The notes below the pieces were generated by a model, which had not been told where the DNA came from, did not search any database, and saw only the letters and a program-made list of their open reading frames with translations. Source: a bacterium (GTDB lineage: Bacteria; Methylomirabilota; Methylomirabilia; CAVQYV01). From it: DNA of 21,328 nucleotides. The stretch lies in the NCBI GenBank assembly GCA_043800755.1, contig JAZDMQ010000139.1, forward strand, positions 1 to 21,328. The letters are read 5' to 3'. Both the position numbers and the translations under genes were made by a program. Of the stretch, positions 7,764 to 17,348 are shown in pieces. How positions within the stretch are numbered: position 1 is the first letter of the stretch; every line of letters begins with the position of its first letter.

Positions 7764-9020
7764 TTGGATAAGATCGTGATCGAAGGGGGCTGTCGTCTGC
7801 GGGGGGAGGTGGCCGTGAGCGGGGCCAAGAATGCTGCCCTTCCCCTGATCGCTGCCAGCCTCCTCACCGAGGAGGAGGTCTTCCTGGAGAATGTCCCCCA
7901 GTTGGGGGATGTGCGAACCATGCTGCATTTGCTGATAAGGATGGGGGTAAAGGCGGAGACCCCGGATCCTCATTCCGTCTCTCTGCGGGCGGAGGGGTTG
8001 AACGCGTGGGAAGCCCCCTATGAGATGGTGAAGACGATGCGGGCCTCCATCTTGGTTTTGGGGCCTCTATTGGCTCGTTGGGGCAGGGGCCGGGTTTCCC
8101 TCCCTGGGGGCTGCTCCATCGGGTCCAGGCCCATTAACCTTCATCTGATGGGCTTCGAGAGGATGGGAGCACGAATTCGACTCAGGGAGGGGTATGTGGA
8201 GGCAGAGTCCGAGAGGCTCCACGGATCTCACATCCTCTTCGACATCTCCACGGTGACGGGCACCGAGAATCTGATGATGGCGGCCTGCCTCGCCGAGGGG
8301 GAGACCATCTTGGAGAATGCGGCACGGGAGCCGGAAGTGGTGGACCTGGCTCAGTTACTAATTTCCATGGGGGCGAAGATCGAAGGTGCGGGGTCTCGCC
8401 GCATCGCGATTGAAGGGGTCAAGGATTTGAAGGGGGCCCGCCGTCGCATCATCCCTGATCGGATCGAGGCGGGCACCCTGATGGTGGCCGCCGGGATCAC
8501 CAAGGGCGATGTCTTCGTCCGCGAGGCAATCCCCGAGCACATGCCGATCTTTATTGAGAAGCTTAAAGAGGCGGGATTGGGGATCGAGATTGAGAATGGC
8601 GGCATCAGGGCCAGGATGGATCGCCGGCCGAGACCGGTGAATATCAAGACCCTCCCCTATCCCGGATTTGCCACCGACATGCAAGCGCAGATGATGGCCC
8701 TGGCGAGTGTCGGTCAAGGTCGCTCCACGATCTCCGAGACAGTTTTCGAGAATCGCTTTCTCCACATCAATGAACTCATGAGGATGGGGGCCAATATCCG
8801 GGTGGAAGGGAGCACGGCGATCATCCAGGGTGTCCCCGAGCTAAGTGGGGCCCCGGTGATGGCGACCGATTTGCGCGCCAGCGCCTGCCTGGTCCTTGCG
8901 GGGTTGGCCGCCCAGGGCATCACCTCGATTTCCCGGGTCTATCATTTGGATCGGGGCTATGAGGGAATTGAGCGGAAGCTTTCGGCACTGGGGGCGAGGA
9001 TTGAGCGCGTCCCCGAATGA
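7764..9020 (+). CDS. murA: UDP-N-acetylglucosamine 1-carboxyvinyltransferase
   Basis: [32 protein letters not shown] (active-site Cys retained), ATDLRAS, YHLDRGY. TTG start. Confidence 0.99.
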
Positions 9021-9046
9021 AGGTCGAAGACGGGAAGGGGTCCCCA

Positions 9047-10336
9047 ATGAGAGTGGTGATGACGAAGGAACCCGGTTTTTCTGAGTGCGTGGAGAGGCTG
9101 CGCCGCCGGGGAGAGATGGGCCAGGGAGAGGTGGAGGATCAGGTGAAGGCCATCCTGGCAGAGGTTCGCCGGAGGGGGGATGTCTCTCTGCTGGAGTTTG
9201 GTGAACGCTTCGACGGCTATCGCCTTGAGGCGTCCCAAATTCGGGTGGAGGAGCGTGAGATCAAGGCGGCCTATGAGGCGATTGATCCTGAGGCCCTCTC
9301 CGCCTTGAGATTGGCCCAAGAGAGGATCACGGCCTTTCACGCCCGGCAAAAGCCCCGCTCCTGGTTCTTCCTGGAAGAGGGGGGGTTTTTGGGCCAGATT
9401 GAGCAGCCCCTGCGGCGGGTAGGAATCTATGTCCCGGGAGGGAAGGCCTCTTATCCCTCCTCCGTATTGATGAATGCCATCCCGGCGAAGGTGGCGGGGG
9501 TAGAAGAGATCGCCATGTGCACCCCGGCCCCCAAGGATCTCTCCCTCTCCCCCTGGATCTTGGTCGCGGCGGATCTGGTGGGGATCCACGAGATCTATCG
9601 GGTGGGAGGTGCCCAGGCCATTGCCGCTTTGGCCTACGGGACGGAGAGCATCCCGGCGGTGGATAAGATCGTGGGGCCGGGCAACATCTACGTGGCGGTC
9701 GCCAAGCGTCTGGTCTTCGGAGAGGTGGGCATCGATATGGTGGCCGGGCCCTCGGAGCTCCTGGTTTACGCCGAGGAGGGGAGCGACCCCACATTGATCG
9801 CCTCCGATCTGCTCTCCCAGGCGGAACACGATGAGATGGCCTATCCCCTGTTGGTGACCCCCTCCTTGAATCTGGCGGAGCGAGTCCGGGAGGAGATCGA
9901 GCTTCAGACAAAGCGACTCTCCCGCTCCGCCATCATCAAAAGCTGCCTGGAGAGAAATGGCTTTGTTCTGGTCTGTACGGACCGGACAGAGGGGATCCGA
10001 CTGATCAATGTCATCGCCCCGGAGCACCTGGAGCTGATGGTTCCAAACCCCTGGGAGATGTTGGGCCTCATCCGATCTGCCGGGGCCATCTTCCTGGGGG
10101 CCTACTCTCCAGAGGCGATCGGGGACTACCTGGCGGGGCCCAACCATGTCTTGCCCACGGGCGGGACCGCCCGGTTCTCCTCGCCCTTGGGGGTTGAGGA
10201 TTTCCTCAAACGCTCCAGCGTCATCTCCCTTTCCTCCGCCCGGGCAAAAGACCTGGCCGGGGCCGCCATGCGGTTGGCCCGGCTGGAGGGACTGGATGGT
10301 CACGCGCGGGCAGTGGAGATGAGGACCAAACCATGA
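9047..10336 (+). CDS. hisD: Histidinol dehydrogenase
   Basis: GIYVPGG, KIVGPGNIYV, DMVAGPSE, LSQAEHD, APEHLEL, GDYLAGPNHVLPT. ATG 9047 has SD-like GGGAAGGGG; the alternative start 9017 overlaps the murA stop. Confidence 0.98.
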   Translation: MRVVMTKEPGFSECVERLRRRGEMGQGEVEDQVKAILAEVRRRGDVSLLEFGERFDGYRLEASQIRVEEREIKAAYEAIDPEALSALRLAQERITAFHARQKPRSWFFLEEGGFLGQIEQPLRRVGIYVPGGKASYPSSVLMNAIPAKVAGVEEIAMCTPAPKDLSLSPWILVAADLVGIHEIYRVGGAQAIAALAYGTESIPAVDKIVGPGNIYVAVAKRLVFGEVGIDMVAGPSELLVYAEEGSDPTLIASDLLSQAEHDEMAYPLLVTPSLNLAERVREEIELQTKRLSRSAIIKSCLERNGFVLVCTDRTEGIRLINVIAPEHLELMVPNPWEMLGLIRSAGAIFLGAYSPEAIGDYLAGPNHVLPTGGTARFSSPLGVEDFLKRSSVISLSSARAKDLAGAAMRLARLEGLDGHARAVEMRTKP

Positions 10337-11415
10337 AACCTATCGATTTTCAATCTCTGATGCGGCCGTCGGTGAGAGAACTGGTTCCCTATGCGGTGGA
10401 GAATATCGCCCACCGGATCAAGATGGACACCAATGAGAATCCCTATCCCTGGCCTCCGGGGTTGCTCCAGGTGGTGATGCAGCGGCTGCAGGAGGTGGAT
10501 CTGAATCGGTACCCCAATCCCTCGGCTGAGGGACTGCGGGAGCTTCTGGCTAAACAGCTAAAGGTCAGTCCCTTCCAGATCATGCTGGGAAATGGCTCGG
10601 ATGAGCTGATTCAGTATATCCTCTTGGCCTTCGGGGGTCCGGAGGTGAAAACCCTCTCACCAACTCCCACCTTTGCCATGTATGAGATTGTGGCCAAGGC
10701 AACGGGATGCCAATTTATCGGGGTCCCCTTGGGGCCCGACCTGGATCTGGATGAAGGGGCACTGAGGGCGGCGATCCAAAGGGAGCAGCCACGCATCCTC
10801 TTTCTGGCCTATCCGAACAACCCCACCGGGAATTGCTTCCGGCGGGAGTCCATAGAGATGCTCCTCTCGGAGTTCGAGGGGATCCTGGTGATCGATGAGG
10901 CCTACTTCGATTTCTCCCAGCAGAGCTTCCTGGATCGACTTCCCCGGCAGGAGAACCTCCTCATCATGCGAACCCTCTCCAAGATCGGGTTGGCTGGACT
11001 GCGAGTAGGGATCCTACTCGGCCAAGAGCCGCTGATTCAACTGATCTCCAAGGTGCGCCTGCCCTATAACCTGAACACCTTCTCACAGATCGCGGCCCAG
11101 GTCGTGCTCACCCATAATGATTTCATCGCCCGCCAACTCAAGATCCTCATTGCAGAGCGGAAGCGCCTTTATCTTTCCCTTCAAGGTCTGCGTGGGATTC
11201 GGTCTTATCCCTCGGAGGCCAACTTCCTCCTTTTTTGGGCCGAGGACTCCGCGAGGGTCTTCGAGGGTCTTTTATCCAGAGGGATACTGGTGCGTGCCTT
11301 CGGTGACTCTGGTCCCTTGAGAGGTCATCTGCGGGTGACGGTGGGAAGGCCGGAGGAGAACGATCAATTCATTGAGGCCCTGGAAGGGCTTTGCGGGAAA
11401 GGGGACCGGGGATGA
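10333..11415 (+). CDS. hisC: Histidinol-phosphate aminotransferase
   Basis: NENPY, RYP, GNGSDELI, PNNPTG, DEAY, RTLSKIGLAGLRVG (PLP lysine), RVTVG; his operon context. Confidence 0.97.
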   Translation: MKPIDFQSLMRPSVRELVPYAVENIAHRIKMDTNENPYPWPPGLLQVVMQRLQEVDLNRYPNPSAEGLRELLAKQLKVSPFQIMLGNGSDELIQYILLAFGGPEVKTLSPTPTFAMYEIVAKATGCQFIGVPLGPDLDLDEGALRAAIQREQPRILFLAYPNNPTGNCFRRESIEMLLSEFEGILVIDEAYFDFSQQSFLDRLPRQENLLIMRTLSKIGLAGLRVGILLGQEPLIQLISKVRLPYNLNTFSQIAAQVVLTHNDFIARQLKILIAERKRLYLSLQGLRGIRSYPSEANFLLFWAEDSARVFEGLLSRGILVRAFGDSGPLRGHLRVTVGRPEENDQFIEALEGLCGKGDRG

Positions 11416-11999
11416 CACGAAAGGCGAGACTGTCGCGGAAGACCAATGAAACCGAGATCCGGGTGGAGCTGAATTTAGATGGAAAGGGAAGCTACCTCAT
11501 CCAGACCCCCCTGCCCTTCATGGATCACATGCTCTCTCTCCTGGCGAAGCACGGGTTCTTCGATCTGAAGGTAGCCGCCAAAGGGGATGTGGAGGTCGAT
11601 GCGCATCATACGGTGGAGGATCTGGGAATTCTCTTGGGAGATGCGTTTCGTCAAGCCCTGGGGGAGAAGAGTGGGATCAGGCGTTACGGGGCCGCCACCA
11701 TTCCCATGGATGAGGCCCTGGCATCCGTATCCCTCGATCTGAGTGGGCGGCCCTATCTTTCCTATCAGGCGCCGGCCCTCAAAGGAAGGATAGGGAACTT
11801 CGAGGTGCGGTTGCTCAAGGAGTTCCTCCGGGCCTTCTCCAATCACCTCCAGGCCACGGTGCATGTCCAGCTGCTCCAGGGCGAGGACCTTCATCACGGG
11901 GCGGAGGCCATCTTCAAGGCCCTGGCCAGAGCCTTGGATGAGGCCTGCATGCAGGAGAAACGCTCCCCAGGCATTCCCTCTACCAAGGGAGAACTCTGA
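11412..11999 (+). CDS. hisB: Imidazoleglycerol-phosphate dehydratase (monofunctional)
   Basis: RKTNET, DHML, DAHHTVED, PMDEAL, HHGAEAIFKA, PSTKG. No N-terminal phosphatase domain. ATG 11412 overlaps the hisC stop (ATGA). Confidence 0.98.
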   Translation: MTRKARLSRKTNETEIRVELNLDGKGSYLIQTPLPFMDHMLSLLAKHGFFDLKVAAKGDVEVDAHHTVEDLGILLGDAFRQALGEKSGIRRYGAATIPMDEALASVSLDLSGRPYLSYQAPALKGRIGNFEVRLLKEFLRAFSNHLQATVHVQLLQGEDLHHGAEAIFKALARALDEACMQEKRSPGIPSTKGEL

Positions 12000-12105
12000 T
12001 CCGCCATCACGGCTTCCTATTCAGACCCTTGAGAATTCGTGGCGAGTGGGAGTCGCCAGCTTGCTGTGGGGGGTACCAGCTTGGGAGGGGGAGTCCTCCA
12101 ACTCC

Positions 12106-12711
12106 ATGATTGCCATCATCAATTCCGGCATTGCCAATGTCCGCTCGGTGCAGAAAGGGTTCGAGCGCGAAGGCTTTCCCGCCCGGATCATTGAGGATCC
12201 GGGCGATCTGGATGGGGCGGGCGGGGCCGTCTTGCCCGGGGTGGGCGCCTTCCGAAGGGGGATGGATTATCTGCGGGAGAAGGGCTTCCTGGAGCCTTTG
12301 CAGCGTTGGATCGAAAGTGGGAAACCGCTTCTGGGCATCTGTCTTGGCTTCCAGCTCCTTTGTGCGGAGAGCGAGGAGTTCGGCCTGCATCGCGGCCTTA
12401 ACATCTTCCCGGGGAGGGTGAGGCGCTTCCCTCCGGGCCTCAAGGTCCCCCACATGGGATGGAATTCGATCCGCCGGGAGAGGAAGATCCCCTTGCTCCA
12501 AGGGATTCCCGATGGCTCCTACTTCTACTTCGTCCATTCCTATTTTCTGGACTCACCCGATCCGGCCGTGGTCGCCGGGACGACCGAGTATGGAATCTCC
12601 TTCCCCTCCGTGATCTGTCGTGACAATGTGTATGCCACCCAGTTTCACCCGGAAAAGAGCCAGAGGTTGGGATTGCGCATCTTGAGCAACTTTGGAGGGC
12701 TGGTCCGATGA
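12106..12711 (+). CDS. hisH: Imidazole glycerol phosphate synthase, glutamine amidotransferase subunit
   Basis: LPGVGAF, LGICLG (catalytic Cys), VPHMGWN, YFVHSY, QFHPEKS. Family similarity begins at ATG 12106 (MIAIIN...). Confidence 0.97.
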   Translation: MIAIINSGIANVRSVQKGFEREGFPARIIEDPGDLDGAGGAVLPGVGAFRRGMDYLREKGFLEPLQRWIESGKPLLGICLGFQLLCAESEEFGLHRGLNIFPGRVRRFPPGLKVPHMGWNSIRRERKIPLLQGIPDGSYFYFVHSYFLDSPDPAVVAGTTEYGISFPSVICRDNVYATQFHPEKSQRLGLRILSNFGGLVR

Positions 12712-13451
12712 TGATCATTCCGGCCATCGATCTGAAAGAGGGCAAGTGCGTGCGACTTCTGCAGGGGGACCCAGAGCAGAAGACGGTCTATTCAGAGGAC
12801 CCGGTGGAGATGGCGCGCCGATGGGAGGGCAAAGGCGCGGAGTTCCTCCATGTCATAGACCTGGATGGGGCTTTTTCCGGGACTCCGATGCACCTGGATC
12901 TGATCGAGAGGATTGCCAAGGCGGTGAGGATTCCCATCCAGGTGGGGGGCGGAATCCGAACCATGGAGAGCATCGTGCGCGTGCTCCAGCAGGGCGCTCA
13001 GAGGGTGATTCTGGGCACCAAGGCGGTGGGCTCTCCCCTTTTCTTGAGCCAGGCATGCCGCCGTTTTGAAGGTCAGATCCTCCTGGGCATCGACGCCCGC
13101 GGGGGGTATGTGGCCATCGAGGGCTGGACCCAACCCACCAACCTCAAGGCGATCGATTTGGCCCGGCAGGCGTCCCACTTCGCCCTGGGTGCCATTATCT
13201 ATACCGATATCTTTCGGGATGGTATGCTGAAAGGCCCGAACCTCGGGGCGCTGGCGGAGATGGCCGAGGCGATCTCGATTCCCCTGATTGCCTCTGGGGG
13301 GATCTCCTCCCTGGATGATGTGCGGGCGATCATGGCCCTGGAGCCGAGGGGGATTGTGGCGATGATTATCGGGAAGGCCCTTTATTCAGGGAAGTTTGAC
13401 CTGGCGGAGGCGGTCGCCTTGACCAGAGAGGGAAGGACGAATGCTCGCTAA
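12708..13451 (+). CDS. hisA: ProFAR isomerase
   Basis: [54 protein letters not shown]. Confidence 0.98.
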
Positions 13452-14205
13452 GAGGATCATTCCCTGCCTGGATGTGAAGGATGGAAGGGTGGTGAAGGGA
13501 ACGAGGTTCCTGCATCTCCGCGATGTGGGAGACCCCCCCGAGGTCGCCGCGGCCTACGATCAGGAGGGGGCGGACGAGCTGGTTTTCCTGGACATTACTG
13601 CCTCCTATGAGGGTCGGAAGACGATGGTGGAGGTGGTGAGGAGGACGGCGGAGATGGCCTTTATGCCCCTGACCGTGGGAGGGGGGATTGCCACGGTGGA
13701 GGATATCCAGGTGATGCTGCAATCGGGGGCGGATAAGGTCTCTCTGAACACGGCGGCGGTCCGAGACCCGGAGCTCCTTCAGCGCTCTGCAGAGATGTTT
13801 GGGAGCCAGTGTATTGTTCTTGCCATCGATGCCAAAAGGAGGTTAGGCGTCCCCCCCTCCTGGGGGGTTTATGTAGAGGGGGGAAGGATCCCCACCTCCC
13901 TGGATGCCCTCTCTTGGGCGAGACAGGGGGAGGAGCTGGGGGCAGGGGAGATCCTCCTCACTAGTATGGACTGCGATGGGACCAAGAACGGATACGATAT
14001 TGAGCTCACGCGGTCCGTGTCCGAGGCAGTGGGCATCCCGGTGATCGCCTCTGGAGGCGCCGGCTCCCTTCAGCATCTTTACGAGGTCTTAGGGGAGGGG
14101 AAGGCCGATGCGGTGCTGGCCGCCTCCATTTTTCACTATGGGATTTTTACCCTCCATGAGGCCAAGTCCTATTTGAAGGAGAGGGGAATCCCGGTCAGGA
14201 TGTGA
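13441..14205 (+). CDS. hisF: Imidazole glycerol phosphate synthase, cyclase subunit
   Basis: [63 protein letters not shown]. Confidence 0.99.
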
Positions 14206-14224
14206 GCGGGGAGGAGGGGAGAGG

Positions 14225-14707
14225 ATGAAGATCGAGGCGATCAAGATCGATATGCCGGAAGGAAGCAATATGATCCTGGGGCAGACCCACTTTATCAAGA
14301 GTCTGGAGGACCTTTATGAGATCCTGGCCACCAGCATGCCCAGATCCCGTTTCGGGGTGGCCTTCTGTGAGGCCTCGGGGCCTTGTCTGATTCGCGTGGA
14401 GGGTAACGATCAAGAGATGAAGGATGCCGCCACTGCCATCGCCCGCGGGGTGGCCAGTGGCCATTTCTTCTCCATTGTCCTGCAGGATGCCTTTCCCATC
14501 AATGTCCTCAATGCGGTGAAGGCCTGCCCTGAGGTCTGTAACATCTTCTGCGCCACCGCCAACCCAGTGGAGGTGGTCGTAGCGGAGACGGAGCAGGGCC
14601 GGGGGGTCATGGGCGTCATCGATGGGTATCCTCCAAAGGGGATCGAGGGGACGGCCGAGGTGGAGGCACGCAAGGAATTCCTGCGCAAGATCGGTTACAA
14701 GCGGTAA
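14225..14707 (+). CDS. DUF355 / 'adenosine-specific kinase' family protein
   Basis: [37 protein letters not shown] (His80), [36 protein letters not shown]. Strong SD GGAGGAGG. Confidence 0.92.
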
Positions 14708-14721
14708 AGGAAGGGAAAAAA

Positions 14722-15114
14722 GTGGAGATCTTGAAAGAGGTCAAATTCGATGAGAGAGGCCTGATCCCCGCCATCATTCAGGAGGCGGAGGGGGGTCAGG
14801 TCCTGATGGTGGCTTACATGAACCGGGATGCCTTGGAGCAGACGGCGCACACCGGCCTCACCCATTTCTTCAGCCGCTCCCGAAACAAGATCTGGAAGAA
14901 GGGGGAGGAGTCGGGCCATGTGCAGCGGGTCAAGGAGATCCTTTACGATTGCGATGGGGATGCCCTCCTGGTGAAGGTGAGCCAAGAGGTGGCGGCCTGT
15001 CACACCGGACACCGGTCCTGCTTCTTTCGCCGCTACCTCCCCTCCTCTGACCGGATAGAGGAGGTGGAGCCGGCGGTGTTCAATCCCCGGGAAGTCTATG
15101 GGAAGAAGGAATAA
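14722..15114 (+). CDS. hisI: Phosphoribosyl-AMP cyclohydrolase (monofunctional, no HisE domain)
   Basis: [48 protein letters not shown]. Ends at 130 aa; GTG start. Confidence 0.97.
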
Positions 15115-15115
15115 G

Positions 15116-15469
15116 ATGGAGCCGCAGCAGAATTGCCCCTTTTGCCGGATTCAGGCCCAGGAAGAAAGATCCCGCTCGGTCTACGAGGATGAATGGGTAG
15201 TGGCCTTCGAGGATATTCACCCCCAGGCACCGCTCCATATCCTGATTATCCCGAAAAGGCATGTGGAGAACCTGCTGGGACTTGAGGAGGAGGATGTTCT
15301 TTTGGCGGGTCGCATGCTGTTGGTGGCCAGTCGGATCGCGCGGGAGCGGGAGGTGGATCGCACCGGGTTTCGGTTGGTGGTCAATTGTAATCGAGACGGG
15401 GGGCAAACGGTGGGGCATCTCCATTTGCACCTGTTGGGGGGCCGAAGGATGAGCTGGCCTCCGGGATAA
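15116..15469 (+). CDS. Histidine triad (HIT/HinT-like) nucleotide-binding hydrolase
   Basis: CPFCRI, AFEDIHPQAPLHILIIPKRH, GGQTVGHLHLHLLGGR, C-terminal WPPG. ATG 15116 is 1 nt after the hisI stop. Confidence 0.95.
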   Translation: MEPQQNCPFCRIQAQEERSRSVYEDEWVVAFEDIHPQAPLHILIIPKRHVENLLGLEEEDVLLAGRMLLVASRIAREREVDRTGFRLVVNCNRDGGQTVGHLHLHLLGGRRMSWPPG

Positions 15470-15575: not shown

Positions 15576-15773
15576 ATGACGAGTGTGGAGGTTAGAGAGG
15601 ACGAGTCCTTTGAGAGCGCATTGCGGAGATTCAAGAAGCAATGTGAAAAGGCGGGAGTCCTCTCTGAGCTGCGCAAGAGGGAGCATTACGAGAAGCCTAG
15701 CGTCCGGAGGAAGAAGAAATCCCTGGCAGCTCGGAAAAAAATGGCGAAGAAGACCCGCATCACCTATGAGTAA
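15576..15773 (+). CDS. rpsU: 30S ribosomal protein S21
   Basis: [12 protein letters not shown]...[31 protein letters not shown]. Confidence 0.98.
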
Positions 15774-15776
15774 AGG

Positions 15777-16229
15777 ATGTCCCTTTCCAATCGGTTTCTC
15801 TTAGAGCAGCAACGGGCAATGAAGGACGGAGATGAGCTCCGCCTTTCAGTGTTACGGCTGCTTCGGGCAGCCATCAAGAACCGGGAAGTAGAGAAAGGGA
15901 GGCCGCTGGAGGATTCAGAGGTGATTCAAGTCATCAGTTCCTCCTGTAGACAGAGAAGGGAAGCCATCGCCCAATACCGCCAGGGAGGCAGGGAGGATCT
16001 GGCGAGCAAGGAAAAGGCTGAGTTGAGGATACTGGAGGAATTCTTGCCCCCACCATTATCTGAGGAAGAACTTCAGGCCAAGATTCAGGAGGCGATTGCG
16101 ACGAGATGGGCAGCTTCGATAAGAGATATGGGCAAGGTCATGGCCCATTTGATGCCTCAGATTTCTGGAAGGATTGACGGCAAGGTTGCCAGCGAGAAGG
16201 TTAAAGAGGTACTGGCCAAAGGACATTAA
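15777..16229 (+). CDS. yqeY: GatB/YqeY domain protein
   Basis: AMKDGDELRLSVLRLL..AIKN, QRREAIAQYRQGGREDL, EEFLP, DMGKVM, GRIDGK; typical position after rpsU. Confidence 0.93.
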   Translation: MSLSNRFLLEQQRAMKDGDELRLSVLRLLRAAIKNREVEKGRPLEDSEVIQVISSSCRQRREAIAQYRQGGREDLASKEKAELRILEEFLPPPLSEEELQAKIQEAIATRWAASIRDMGKVMAHLMPQISGRIDGKVASEKVKEVLAKGH

Positions 16230-16290: not shown

Positions 16291-16332
16291 AAAAGGGCAA
16301 GGGGCCTTCAATCAGGCTTCTTGCCCTTTTTT
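16291..16332 (+). terminator. Intrinsic terminator/attenuator between yqeY and the NIF3-like gene
   Basis: AAAAGGGCAAGGGGCCT, loop TCAATC, AGGCTTCTTGCCCTTTTTT: a 13-bp GC-rich stem (2 G-U) followed by T6 and preceded by A4. Confidence 0.8.
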
Positions 16333-16376
16333 CCCTCGGGGAGAAAGTCCCTCTCAGGATCAAAGGAGGTTTTTCG

Positions 16377-17348
16377 GTGAAGATCGGAGAGATCTACCAA
16401 AAGGCAATTGCCCTGGGGATGAAGAATGATCCCCGCTCCGAGGAGGGGGCCCTCCAAGTGCTGGAGAGGGCCAAAAAGGAATATGAGGAGCTGAAGGAAG
16501 ACCAGAGGTGGGAGTTCGATCAAGACCGGCTGGAGAACCCGTATGCCGACAGCCGCCTGCTCTATGGCTCGAAGGAGAGAGAGGCGAAGAGGCTGCTGGC
16601 CGGCATCGACATGGAGGTGGGGGAGGTGCTCCTGGCCGATCGGTTGGGGGACCGGGGGAAGAAGATCGACCTCATCCTGTCCCACCATCCTGAGGGCCGG
16701 GCCCTGGCCGGCTTCTATGAGGTGATGGAGATGCAGGCGGATATCCTTCACAAATATGGGGTTCCCATTGCCGTTGCGGAGGGGATCCTCGAGGGACGCA
16801 TCAAGGAGGTGCAGCGCAAGGTCATGCCGGCCAATCATACCCGGGCCGTGGATGTTGCCGCCCTCCTGGATATTCCATTTCTCTGCATCCATACCCCGGC
16901 AGACAATATGGTGACCACCTATCTCCAGAGAAAGATAGATGAGGAGAGACCGTTCCTGGTGAAGGAGGTGCTGGAGATATTGAGGCGGATCCCCGAATAC
17001 CAGGAGGGGATTGCCAACCACAACGGGCCGAATCTCGTGCTCGGCTCCGAGAAGCGGAAGACGGGCAAGGTATTTGTGGATATGACCGGAGGGACCGGGG
17101 GCTCCAAGGAGGCCTTTGAGAAGATCGCCCGCACCGAGGTAGGGACGATTGTAGGAATGCACATCGGGGAGGAGCACCGGGCCGAGGCGGAAAAGAACCA
17201 TCTCAATGTGATCATCGCTGGCCATATCCCCAGCGACTCCCTGGGCCTAAACCTCCTCCTGGACGAGTTGGAGAAAGGAGGGCCGCTGGAGATCATCCCC
17301 TGTTCCGGTTTCAGGAGGATCTCCCGCGGAGGATCCAGTCAGGCATGA
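16377..17348 (+). CDS. NIF3/NGG1p-interacting-factor-like dinuclear metal-centre protein (long variant)
   Basis: NPYADS, GIDM, ILSHHPEG, CIHTPADN, GMH, NVIIAGHIPSDSLG metal-ligand pattern. SD AAAGGAGGT, GTG start. Confidence 0.85.
   Translation: MKIGEIYQKAIALGMKNDPRSEEGALQVLERAKKEYEELKEDQRWEFDQDRLENPYADSRLLYGSKEREAKRLLAGIDMEVGEVLLADRLGDRGKKIDLILSHHPEGRALAGFYEVMEMQADILHKYGVPIAVAEGILEGRIKEVQRKVMPANHTRAVDVAALLDIPFLCIHTPADNMVTTYLQRKIDEERPFLVKEVLEILRRIPEYQEGIANHNGPNLVLGSEKRKTGKVFVDMTGGTGGSKEAFEKIARTEVGTIVGMHIGEEHRAEAEKNHLNVIIAGHIPSDSLGLNLLLDELEKGGPLEIIPCSGFRRISRGGSSQA

Follow-up and report, generated by a model that had tools for sequence, protein, structure and literature searches.

A PF04008 (DUF355) gene beside hisI in a histidine operon lacking hisE: a candidate for the PR-ATP to PR-AMP step in Methylomirabilota

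Which enzyme performs the PR-ATP to PR-AMP step in a bacterium whose histidine operon carries a monofunctional hisI and no hisE? The question is raised by the window, i.e., the whole stretch of 21,328 nucleotides that was analyzed (contig C57 of G000, a Methylomirabilota/NC10 MAG of 2.43 Mb, 100% complete, in 166 contigs), in which an orphan HisI is flanked by two nucleotide-handling proteins, one of the PF04008 family and one of the HIT family; counting a MazG encoded elsewhere in the genome, there are three candidates. The missing PR-ATP pyrophosphatase is an already recognized gap, and this locus makes it testable. According to the available part of the GapMind 2026 report (PMC13759103), the PR-ATP pyrophosphatase was missing in 19 of 208 prototrophs and was among four steps accounting for 65% of the gaps still left, and other pyrophosphatases were speculated to stand in for the known families; PF04008, DUF355 and adenosine kinase are not mentioned in its text, and the supplement with the 19 genomes may bear on the matter. 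The available part of Price et al. 2018 (PMC5764234) reports that histidine is required when the MazG-family gene DVU1186 is mutated. The genes of the window, all on the forward strand, are as follows.

5' of hisD, +: rho, DUF1385, prfA, prmC and a murA/aroA-family gene, in that order
7764-9020, +: the murA/aroA-family gene, directly preceding hisD
9017..10336, +: hisD, histidinol dehydrogenase, the first his gene of the operon (PF00815, E 3e-167)
10333..11415, +: hisC, aminotransferase class I/II (PF00155); the same order is kept in the sister genome G001
11391..11999, +: hisB, IGP dehydratase only, without a phosphatase domain (PF00475 only; monofunctional HisB equivalogs in NCBIfam)
12046..12711, +: hisH, glutamine amidotransferase (PF00117, in the open reading frame 11863-12711)
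12708..13451, +: hisA (PF00977)
13441..14205, +: hisF (PF00977)
14225..14707, +: PF04008 (Adenosine_kin/DUF355) gene, 160 aa (Pfam, 245 bits)
14722..15114, +: hisI, monofunctional PR-AMP cyclohydrolase, 130 aa, without a HisE domain (PF01502 only)
15098..15469, +: HIT (Hint/HinT-like) gene, 123 aa, overlapping hisI by 17 nt (PF01230); in the same place in G001
15576..15773, +: rpsU, ribosomal protein S21, 65 aa (open reading frame; the name S21 is a reading of its translation)
15777..16229, +: yqeY, GatB/YqeY-domain protein (PF09424)

The coordinates bear out the arrangement described in an earlier note on this DNA, in which hisF is followed by a 19-nt gap (GGAGG-rich, before an ATG), the PF04008 gene, a 14-nt gap and hisI, which starts with GTG at 14722. 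Its description of HisI as a monofunctional protein of 130 aa also held, since only the PRA-CH domain was found and the NCBIfam equivalog for monofunctional PR-AMP cyclohydrolase (NF000768) was matched at 169 bits, above the cut-off of 126; HisB, said to have no phosphatase domain, was found to contain the IGPD domain only. The start of hisH is uncertain, with in-frame starts at 12046, 12061 and 12106. The HIT protein is HinT-like and falls below the cut-off of the NCBIfam HinT equivalog (97 bits vs. 206), and in relatives, rpsU-like tblastn matches adjoin yqeY. At its 3' end, the his operon thus brings the PF04008 gene together with hisF, hisI and HIT, with which it is probably co-transcribed. 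The PF04008 gene was covered by contigs of metatranscriptome libraries from two studies, one contig (14392-15029) spanning the PF04008 gene into hisI and another (15049-15457) spanning hisI into HIT, although such contigs indicate presence in a library rather than a single transcript and may reflect DNA carry-over; positions 14205-14391 were left uncovered by contigs in RNA library X15, a gap to which no meaning is attached. A scan for promoters and terminators gave counts at chance level.

The absence of hisE, noted earlier for the window, was found to extend to the whole genome. A TIGR03188 profile search of G000 gave no match above cut-off, and the PF01503 and weak TIGR03188 matches all fell in one 278-aa tandem MazG (C94:13896-14732), which is a standard NTP pyrophosphohydrolase by NF007113 (329 bits, cut-off 208) and TIGR00444; the same search recovered canonical HisE above cut-off in all 14 named control genomes. 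A canonical hisE elsewhere in the genome, named in the earlier note as counting against its proposal, was found neither in G000 nor in G001 (10 contigs, 100% complete). The wider search proposed there, for MazG, HisN, HisJ and HisK proteins, returned a standard MazG together with PHP-type and IMPase-family proteins, and no HisE. HisG is present on contig C95 in its long form (290 aa). The loss of HisE in this lineage is therefore real. Within the phylum it is also rare: hisE was above cut-off in 39 of 41 relatives and in 131 of 135 genomes (tallies that take in the unpublished G030, G039, G061 and G126, each hisE-positive), the only hisE-less genomes among the 41 being G000 and G001, both of family f1, and the only others among the 135 being two fragmented genomes, G064 and G068.

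Gene orders at hisI, read in 30 of the 41 relatives, suggest how the present arrangement arose. Genus g4 and family f6 (for which G019 also shows the order, so that it does not depend on the unpublished genomes) carry hisA-hisF-hisIE-HIT(-rpsU-yqeY), family f4 carries hisF-hisIE-rpsU-yqeY, G017 of family f5 carries hisF-PF04008-hisIE-rpsU-yqeY, and both f1 genomes carry hisF-PF04008-hisI-HIT, continued in f1 by rpsU. These orders point to an ancestral HIT gene 3' of hisI(E), to insertion of PF04008 between hisF and hisI, and then to loss of the HisE domain in f1. PF04008 was found in 9 of the 41 relatives, namely in both f1 genomes, in six of the eight g4 genomes and in G017; in g4, a Methylomirabilis-like genus, the gene lies away from the his genes and belongs to the other half of the family tree.

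The window protein is an ordinary, full-length PF04008 member. Its sole Pfam match is PF04008 Adenosine_kin (E 2.7e-73, 245.3 bits vs. a cut-off of 25), with residues 6-159 covering profile positions 1-154 of 154, and a scan against NCBIfam gave no match. Over its full length it is 52-60% identical (E 2e-59 to 1e-36) to six solved "hypothetical proteins", the structures being those of PAE2307 (1WVQ, 2GL0, 2JB7), ST1511 (2EKM), TTHA1091 (1VGG), PH1918 (2D16) and 1RLH. Its AlphaFold2 model (pLDDT 94.6; 8 strands, 4 helices) superimposes on 1WVQ_A (PAE2307) with a Z score of 26.7 and an rmsd of 1.4 A over 160 of 160 residues; beyond the PF04008 family, all matches of the fold search had Z scores of at most 6.7, to generic ferredoxin-like, ACT or acylphosphatase-like domains, and no clear likeness to phosphohistidine swivel domains was seen. 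At least 97% conservation was found at 45 of the 160 positions in 94 bacterial and archaeal members, and the window protein keeps all 45. The placement of His80 in a conserved G-H motif was likewise corroborated: the motif reads S-G-H here, conservation of G79 and of H80 reaches at least 97% across the 94 members, and 38 columns are invariant in alignment A1. The protein thus resembles the solved members in full-length identity, fold and invariant G-H motif; no paper found in the literature search relates any of the solved proteins to histidine synthesis. The two halves of the family tree are weakly supported (SH-aLRT 77) and are parted by one column only (C101 vs. V); judged from the sequences, there is no histidine-specific PF04008 subfamily and no sign of neofunctionalization. 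The near-uniform sequence is read here as a single biochemistry common to genomes that have hisE, that lack it and that lack hisI. A PF04008-HisI fusion (P0003) was considered as a Rosetta-stone link and set aside, being a singleton with both domains truncated that may be an indel artifact.

The family has no agreed function, and both adenosine kinase and ADPase have been proposed in print. As cited in PMC10248530, PAE2307 binds adenosine and AMP and bears a phosphorylated conserved histidine (Lott 2006), and a Thermus thermophilus member cleaves ADP to AMP (Tomoike 2016). In the available part of the same paper, the Thermotoga maritima protein was reported to lack both kinase activity, no AMP being formed from adenosine, and phosphatase activity toward AMP, ADP and ATP (PMC10248530). 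The Pfam label "adenosine kinase" is therefore not to be taken as a function. A literature search on the family found no paper linking it with histidine synthesis.

The gene pair itself is conserved well beyond the window. Of the 80 closest HisI loci, 28, mostly from Nitrospirota and NC10, have PF04008 immediately 5' of hisI, so the link is not local, and the adjacency is not confined to this lineage; such confinement had been named in the earlier note as counting against its proposal. By genes adjoining hisI, the 80 loci comprised 22 with none of hisE, PF04008 or HIT, 17 with hisE only, 13 with PF04008 only, 10 with HIT only, 6 with hisE and PF04008, 5 with hisE, PF04008 and HIT, 4 with PF04008 and HIT, and 3 with hisE and HIT. 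The 13 loci with PF04008 only, from Nitrospirota, are two-gene PF04008-hisI units with no other his gene near and opposite-strand genes following them, and in two Nitrospirae MAGs without hisE, PF04008, hisI and HIT form a unit on their own. Two phyla thus retain the PF04008-hisI(E) pair, often as an operon that stands alone. Since both PF04008-hisIE(-HIT) and PF04008-hisI(-HIT) occur in each of the two phyla, the pattern fits loss of hisE where PF04008 was already coupled to hisI. Among the 48 genomes without hisE adjoining hisI (the 49 such loci minus that of G001 itself), 46 had no hisE above cut-off and two had one, and 43 carried PF04008, for which the background was 3 of 14 control genomes. 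No third conserved gene was found beside hisI in the loci without adjacent HIT or hisE.

The anti-correlation of PF04008 with hisE, put forward earlier as a check, was only partly borne out. Among 151 Nitrospirota genomes at least 90% complete, hisI was found in 148, of which 16 had both genes, 55 PF04008 only, 62 hisE only and 15 neither; PF04008 was accordingly present in 55 of 70 hisE-less and 16 of 78 hisE-positive genomes (odds ratio 0.07, Fisher p 1e-12). On a HisI tree of 109 Nitrospirota genomes, however, hisE changes state only about four times (once on well-supported branches), and PF04008 18 times, so the anti-correlation is largely one clade effect and not an independent test; an independent-pairs test of PF04008 against hisE on this tree gave p = 1, and the number of independent changes (four for hisE, seven for HIT adjacency) is too small to give the sign tests any power. 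By coordinates, PF04008 adjoins hisI in 11 of the 16 Nitrospirota with both genes, where hisIE is bifunctional, vs. 5 of the 55 with PF04008 only. A sample of 50 diverse PF04008 holders, chosen by eye from 75 further loci to thin Acidobacteriota and Eisenbacteria (the other 25 being left out), had hisI in 35 and hisE in 13, all 13 also with hisI, leaving 22 of the 35 hisI-positive holders without hisE and 15 of the 50 without hisI. PF04008 also coexists with hisE in T. maritima, T. thermophilus, Sulfolobus acidocaldarius and six of the eight g4 genomes. There is no PF04008/hisE complementarity in Acidobacteriota: among 61 genomes, not scored for hisI and including one unpublished (G425), hisE was found in 29 and not in 32, and PF04008 was present in one of the first eight hisE-less genomes (absent from seven) and in two of the first seven hisE-positive genomes listed.

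In roughly half of the Nitrospirota and Acidobacteriota sampled (70 of 148 hisI-positive and 32 of 61, respectively), no canonical HisE was thus found, and automated metabolic reconstructions would mistake such organisms for histidine auxotrophs. The absence of PF04008 from 15 of the 70 hisE-less Nitrospirota and from seven of the eight hisE-less Acidobacteriota means that another solution must exist. At least one other enzyme performs the PR-ATP step in many bacteria, and it could also serve here.

The reading preferred here, held tentatively, is that the PF04008 protein supplies the PR-ATP to PR-AMP step in place of HisE. Since hisI is the only gene with which the pairing is conserved, a function at the step feeding HisI is the simplest to assume; by the same token, the suggestion that it handles AICAR gained no specific support, the Nitrospirota partner being hisI and not hisF. 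Family f1 has lost the HisE domain that an ancestral hisIE carried, and the PF04008 protein, an alpha/beta adenine-nucleotide-binding protein with an invariant histidine, would act at the step feeding HisI by turning PR-ATP from HisG, and perhaps PR-ADP, which HisG can likewise form, into PR-AMP. In the likely chemistry, His80 would attack the beta-phosphate and the resulting phosphorylated enzyme would be hydrolyzed; the reported cleavage of ADP to AMP and the reported phosphorylated histidine fit such an attack on PR-ATP or PR-ADP. The canonical all-alpha HisE would thereby become dispensable, with some redundancy from HIT or MazG possible. We infer the substrate, the chemistry and the choice of PF04008 rather than HIT or MazG as supplier. 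Evidence against this reading comes from the hisE-less genomes without PF04008, the frequent coexistence with hisE, the holders without hisI, the near-uniform family sequence, the inactivity of the T. maritima homolog and the MazG precedent in Desulfovibrio. The earlier proposal of a non-orthologous PR-ATP pyrophosphohydrolase is in this respect strengthened by the genome-wide lack of hisE and by the wide PF04008-hisI adjacency, and weakened by an anti-correlation with hisE that was not clean; its choice of PF04008 was retained, and it had left unconsidered the HIT gene 3' of hisI and MazG, for which there is a Desulfovibrio precedent.

Compared with the HisE/HisIE domain (PF01503, TIGR03188), the PF04008 protein would share the postulated PR-ATP to PR-AMP reaction, and it shares the position beside hisI. 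HisE has an all-alpha fold resembling that of MazG. The two are related neither in sequence nor in fold: the PF04008 protein gave no match to the HisE models TIGR03188 and PF01503, its only match being PF04008, and its predicted structure is of the alpha/beta type with eight strands. The chemistry would also differ, with metal-assisted release of PPi in HisE and a postulated histidine nucleophile with stepwise release of Pi in PF04008. The family could perhaps constitute a third class of PR-ATP (and PR-ADP) phosphohydrolase, structurally unrelated to the others and acting by way of a phosphohistidine. If so, PF04008 would fill part of the PR-ATP pyrophosphatase gap in prototrophs, for instance in hisE-less Nitrospirota and in NC10 family f1, and a 20-year-old structural-genomics family, for which six structures but no accepted activity are available, would gain a physiological substrate.

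A possible, though doubtful, alternative is that the housekeeping tandem MazG hydrolyzes PR-ATP and that PF04008, linked to hisI through co-expression only, has a different adenylate-related function. The MazG of G000 is a standard NTP pyrophosphohydrolase and the sole weak HisE-like match in the genome, and this explanation would also account for the hisE-less genomes without PF04008. In the available part of PMC5764234, the Desulfovibrio MazG-family protein DVU1186 is a genetically supported PR-ATP diphosphatase; it sets a precedent for a different nucleotide hydrolase taking the place of hisE in prototrophs without that gene, and it differs from PF04008 in being a distant HisE homolog rather than a protein of unrelated fold. 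However, weak MazG-like matches were also obtained in hisE-positive relatives, which leaves the loss of hisE in f1 unexplained by the presence of MazG, and no MazG gene was found beside his genes in any locus examined. Moreover, the 19 prototrophs reported in the available part of GapMind 2026 (PMC13759103) were still without the PR-ATP step despite the earlier publication on DVU1186.

Rather unlikely is a general, histidine-independent role of PF04008, in adenine-nucleotide or tRNA-end metabolism, with the adjacency to hisI being an inherited order spread by descent or cassette transfer. This explanation overlaps with those based on MazG and HIT. It is consistent with the setting of most PF04008 genes, which have no his neighbors: in 74 of the 80 closest PF04008 loci, none of the his, HIT or yqeY genes of the window lay within 8 kb, and no neighbor family was found in more than 8 of the 80 (SDR 8, Lhr helicase 6, RNase R 6, OGG 5, acetyl-CoA synthetase 5). 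The holders without hisI and the uniform sequence of the family point the same way, as do four Anaerolineae in which HIT, PF04008 and yqeY lie together without hisI and, although PF04008 fusions are rare, a genuine fusion protein of the order CCA-adding enzyme-HD-PF04008 (P0002; 9 members, 4 contigs). Nevertheless, the isolated PF04008-hisI operon persists amid changing surroundings and recurs in two phyla, and PF04008 holders are enriched among hisE-less genomes.

It is unlikely that the Hint-type HIT protein replaces HisE, a mechanism in which its catalytic histidine would attack the alpha-phosphate of PR-ATP, PPi would leave and the PR-AMP-enzyme would be hydrolyzed. HIT enzymes form a nucleotidyl-histidine intermediate at the alpha-phosphate, which fits the bond cleaved in the PR-ATP step, and the HIT protein of the window belongs by its PF01230 match with the Hint/HinT purine nucleoside phosphoramidases, which act at the alpha-phosphate of adenine nucleotides. 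We know of no HIT protein with PR-ATP activity, and no paper proposing one for this step was found among the titles and abstract openings available. The gene lies directly 3' of hisI in 65 of the 70 hisE-less Nitrospirota: it follows hisI in 50 of the 55 with PF04008 only (one of the five exceptions being cut by a contig end), and all 15 with hisI and neither hisE nor PF04008 carry an isolated hisI-HIT pair. HIT also follows hisI in G000, G001, G041 and G042. Among 103 hisE-less Nitrospirota-like genomes, 59 had both PF04008 and an adjacent HIT gene, 27 PF04008 only, 17 adjacent HIT only and none neither (Fisher p 0.005); outside Nitrospirota, three hisE-less genomes (G146, G150 and G157) had neither. 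The PF04008/HIT pattern was not significant by independent pairs on the HisI tree.

Against a replacement of HisE by HIT, the gene was also found after bifunctional hisIE in 28 of 40 hisE-positive Nitrospirota (about every second of the 78), within hisA-hisF-hisIE-HIT(-rpsU-yqeY), and, as it adjoins hisIE in g4 and f6 too, the adjacency is ancestral and not tied to the loss of hisE. HIT-rpsU-yqeY is a common housekeeping cluster: it is frequent without his genes in other phyla, and in 16 of the 80 closest HIT loci, yqeY follows HIT at a distance of about 650 nt. No column distinguishing the HIT sequences of hisE-less from those of hisE-positive genomes was shared with NC10, and HIT was not found beside hisI in hisE-less Acidobacteriota, where the gene order is hisI-hisG-hisD, or in hisE-less Desulfarculaceae. 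One HisI-HIT fusion of 246 aa (P0029) would favor the replacement; however, it was found only once, shows signs of indel errors and has an odd stretch within HIT, and it was rejected as a Rosetta-stone link since it may be an indel artifact.

Finally, it is very improbable that PF04008 is the missing histidinol-phosphate phosphatase acting through a phosphohistidine intermediate, an idea of the earlier note that could draw on the phosphatase-less HisB, on the phosphorylated histidine reported for the family (Lott 2006, cited in PMC10248530) and on the standing of this step as the commonest unfilled gap (42 of 208 prototrophs in the available part of PMC13759103), since adenosine, AMP and ADP are the ligands on record, the pairing is conserved with hisI rather than with hisB or hisC, the protein gave no match to the HAD HisB-N, PHP HisK/HisJ or IMPase HisN families in Pfam and NCBIfam, and G000 encodes, besides an IMPase-family protein, a 219-aa PHP protein on contig C116 that matches NF004981 ("histidinol phosphate phosphatase domain-containing protein") at 301 bits, well above the cut-off of 117.

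Among the 148 hisI-positive genomes sampled from Nitrospirota, 70 yielded no canonical PR-ATP pyrophosphohydrolase HisE (TIGR03188), and the same holds for 32 of 61 sampled Acidobacteriota genomes, a set not restricted to those carrying hisI. These rates are far higher than the 9% of prototrophs without this step given in the GapMind 2026 survey (PMC13759103). In Methylomirabilota, HisE was absent from only 4 of 135 genomes.

The PF04008 family was also encountered with HIT genes away from histidine genes. At four Anaerolineae (Chloroflexota) loci (L066, L068, L073 and L074), HIT and yqeY flank or adjoin PF04008. Neither hisI nor hisE was found in the two Anaerolineae genomes searched (G044 and G045) and, since both lack these genes, the association of HIT with PF04008 is independent of histidine synthesis there. 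A second HIT-superfamily gene was located in the genome that holds the window, on a contig (C116) that also carries a candidate PHP-type phosphatase at 927-1586:

C116:13383-14057, (-) strand, HIT-superfamily gene of 224 aa resembling ATP adenylyltransferase, with a score below the cut-off

The fusion protein P0002 (641 aa) is built from the head domain of a CCA-adding enzyme, an HD domain and a PF04008 domain of full length, and is represented by nine member sequences from four contigs; this domain arrangement hints that the PF04008 family is tied to tRNA 3'-end or nucleotide handling. P0029 (246 aa), a single example, joins HisI to HIT with both domains complete, and is 63% identical to the window's HIT. 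One internal stretch of its HIT part differs from related sequences, and indel errors are therefore possible.

PF04008 matches divided between two frames or contigs (G248:C13:8992-9451, G377:C1:120200-120659 and fragments in genomes G288 and G314) could represent pseudogenes or errors of assembly; among these genomes, G248 has hisE.

In two Nitrospirae MAGs, a putative pair of PIN-like and antitoxin-like genes, as judged from translation alone, lies 3' of an isolated PF04008-hisI-HIT unit, on the opposite strand to it:

L012:9438-10077, PIN-domain-like gene and small antitoxin-like gene
L029:3883-4519, PIN-domain-like gene and small antitoxin-like gene

Within the window, two long ORFs overlap on opposite strands:

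16377-17348, (+) strand, long ORF whose sole match, to NIF3/DUF34, is weak (E 1e-4) and scores below the cut-off
16308-17225, (-) strand, long ORF with no Pfam match
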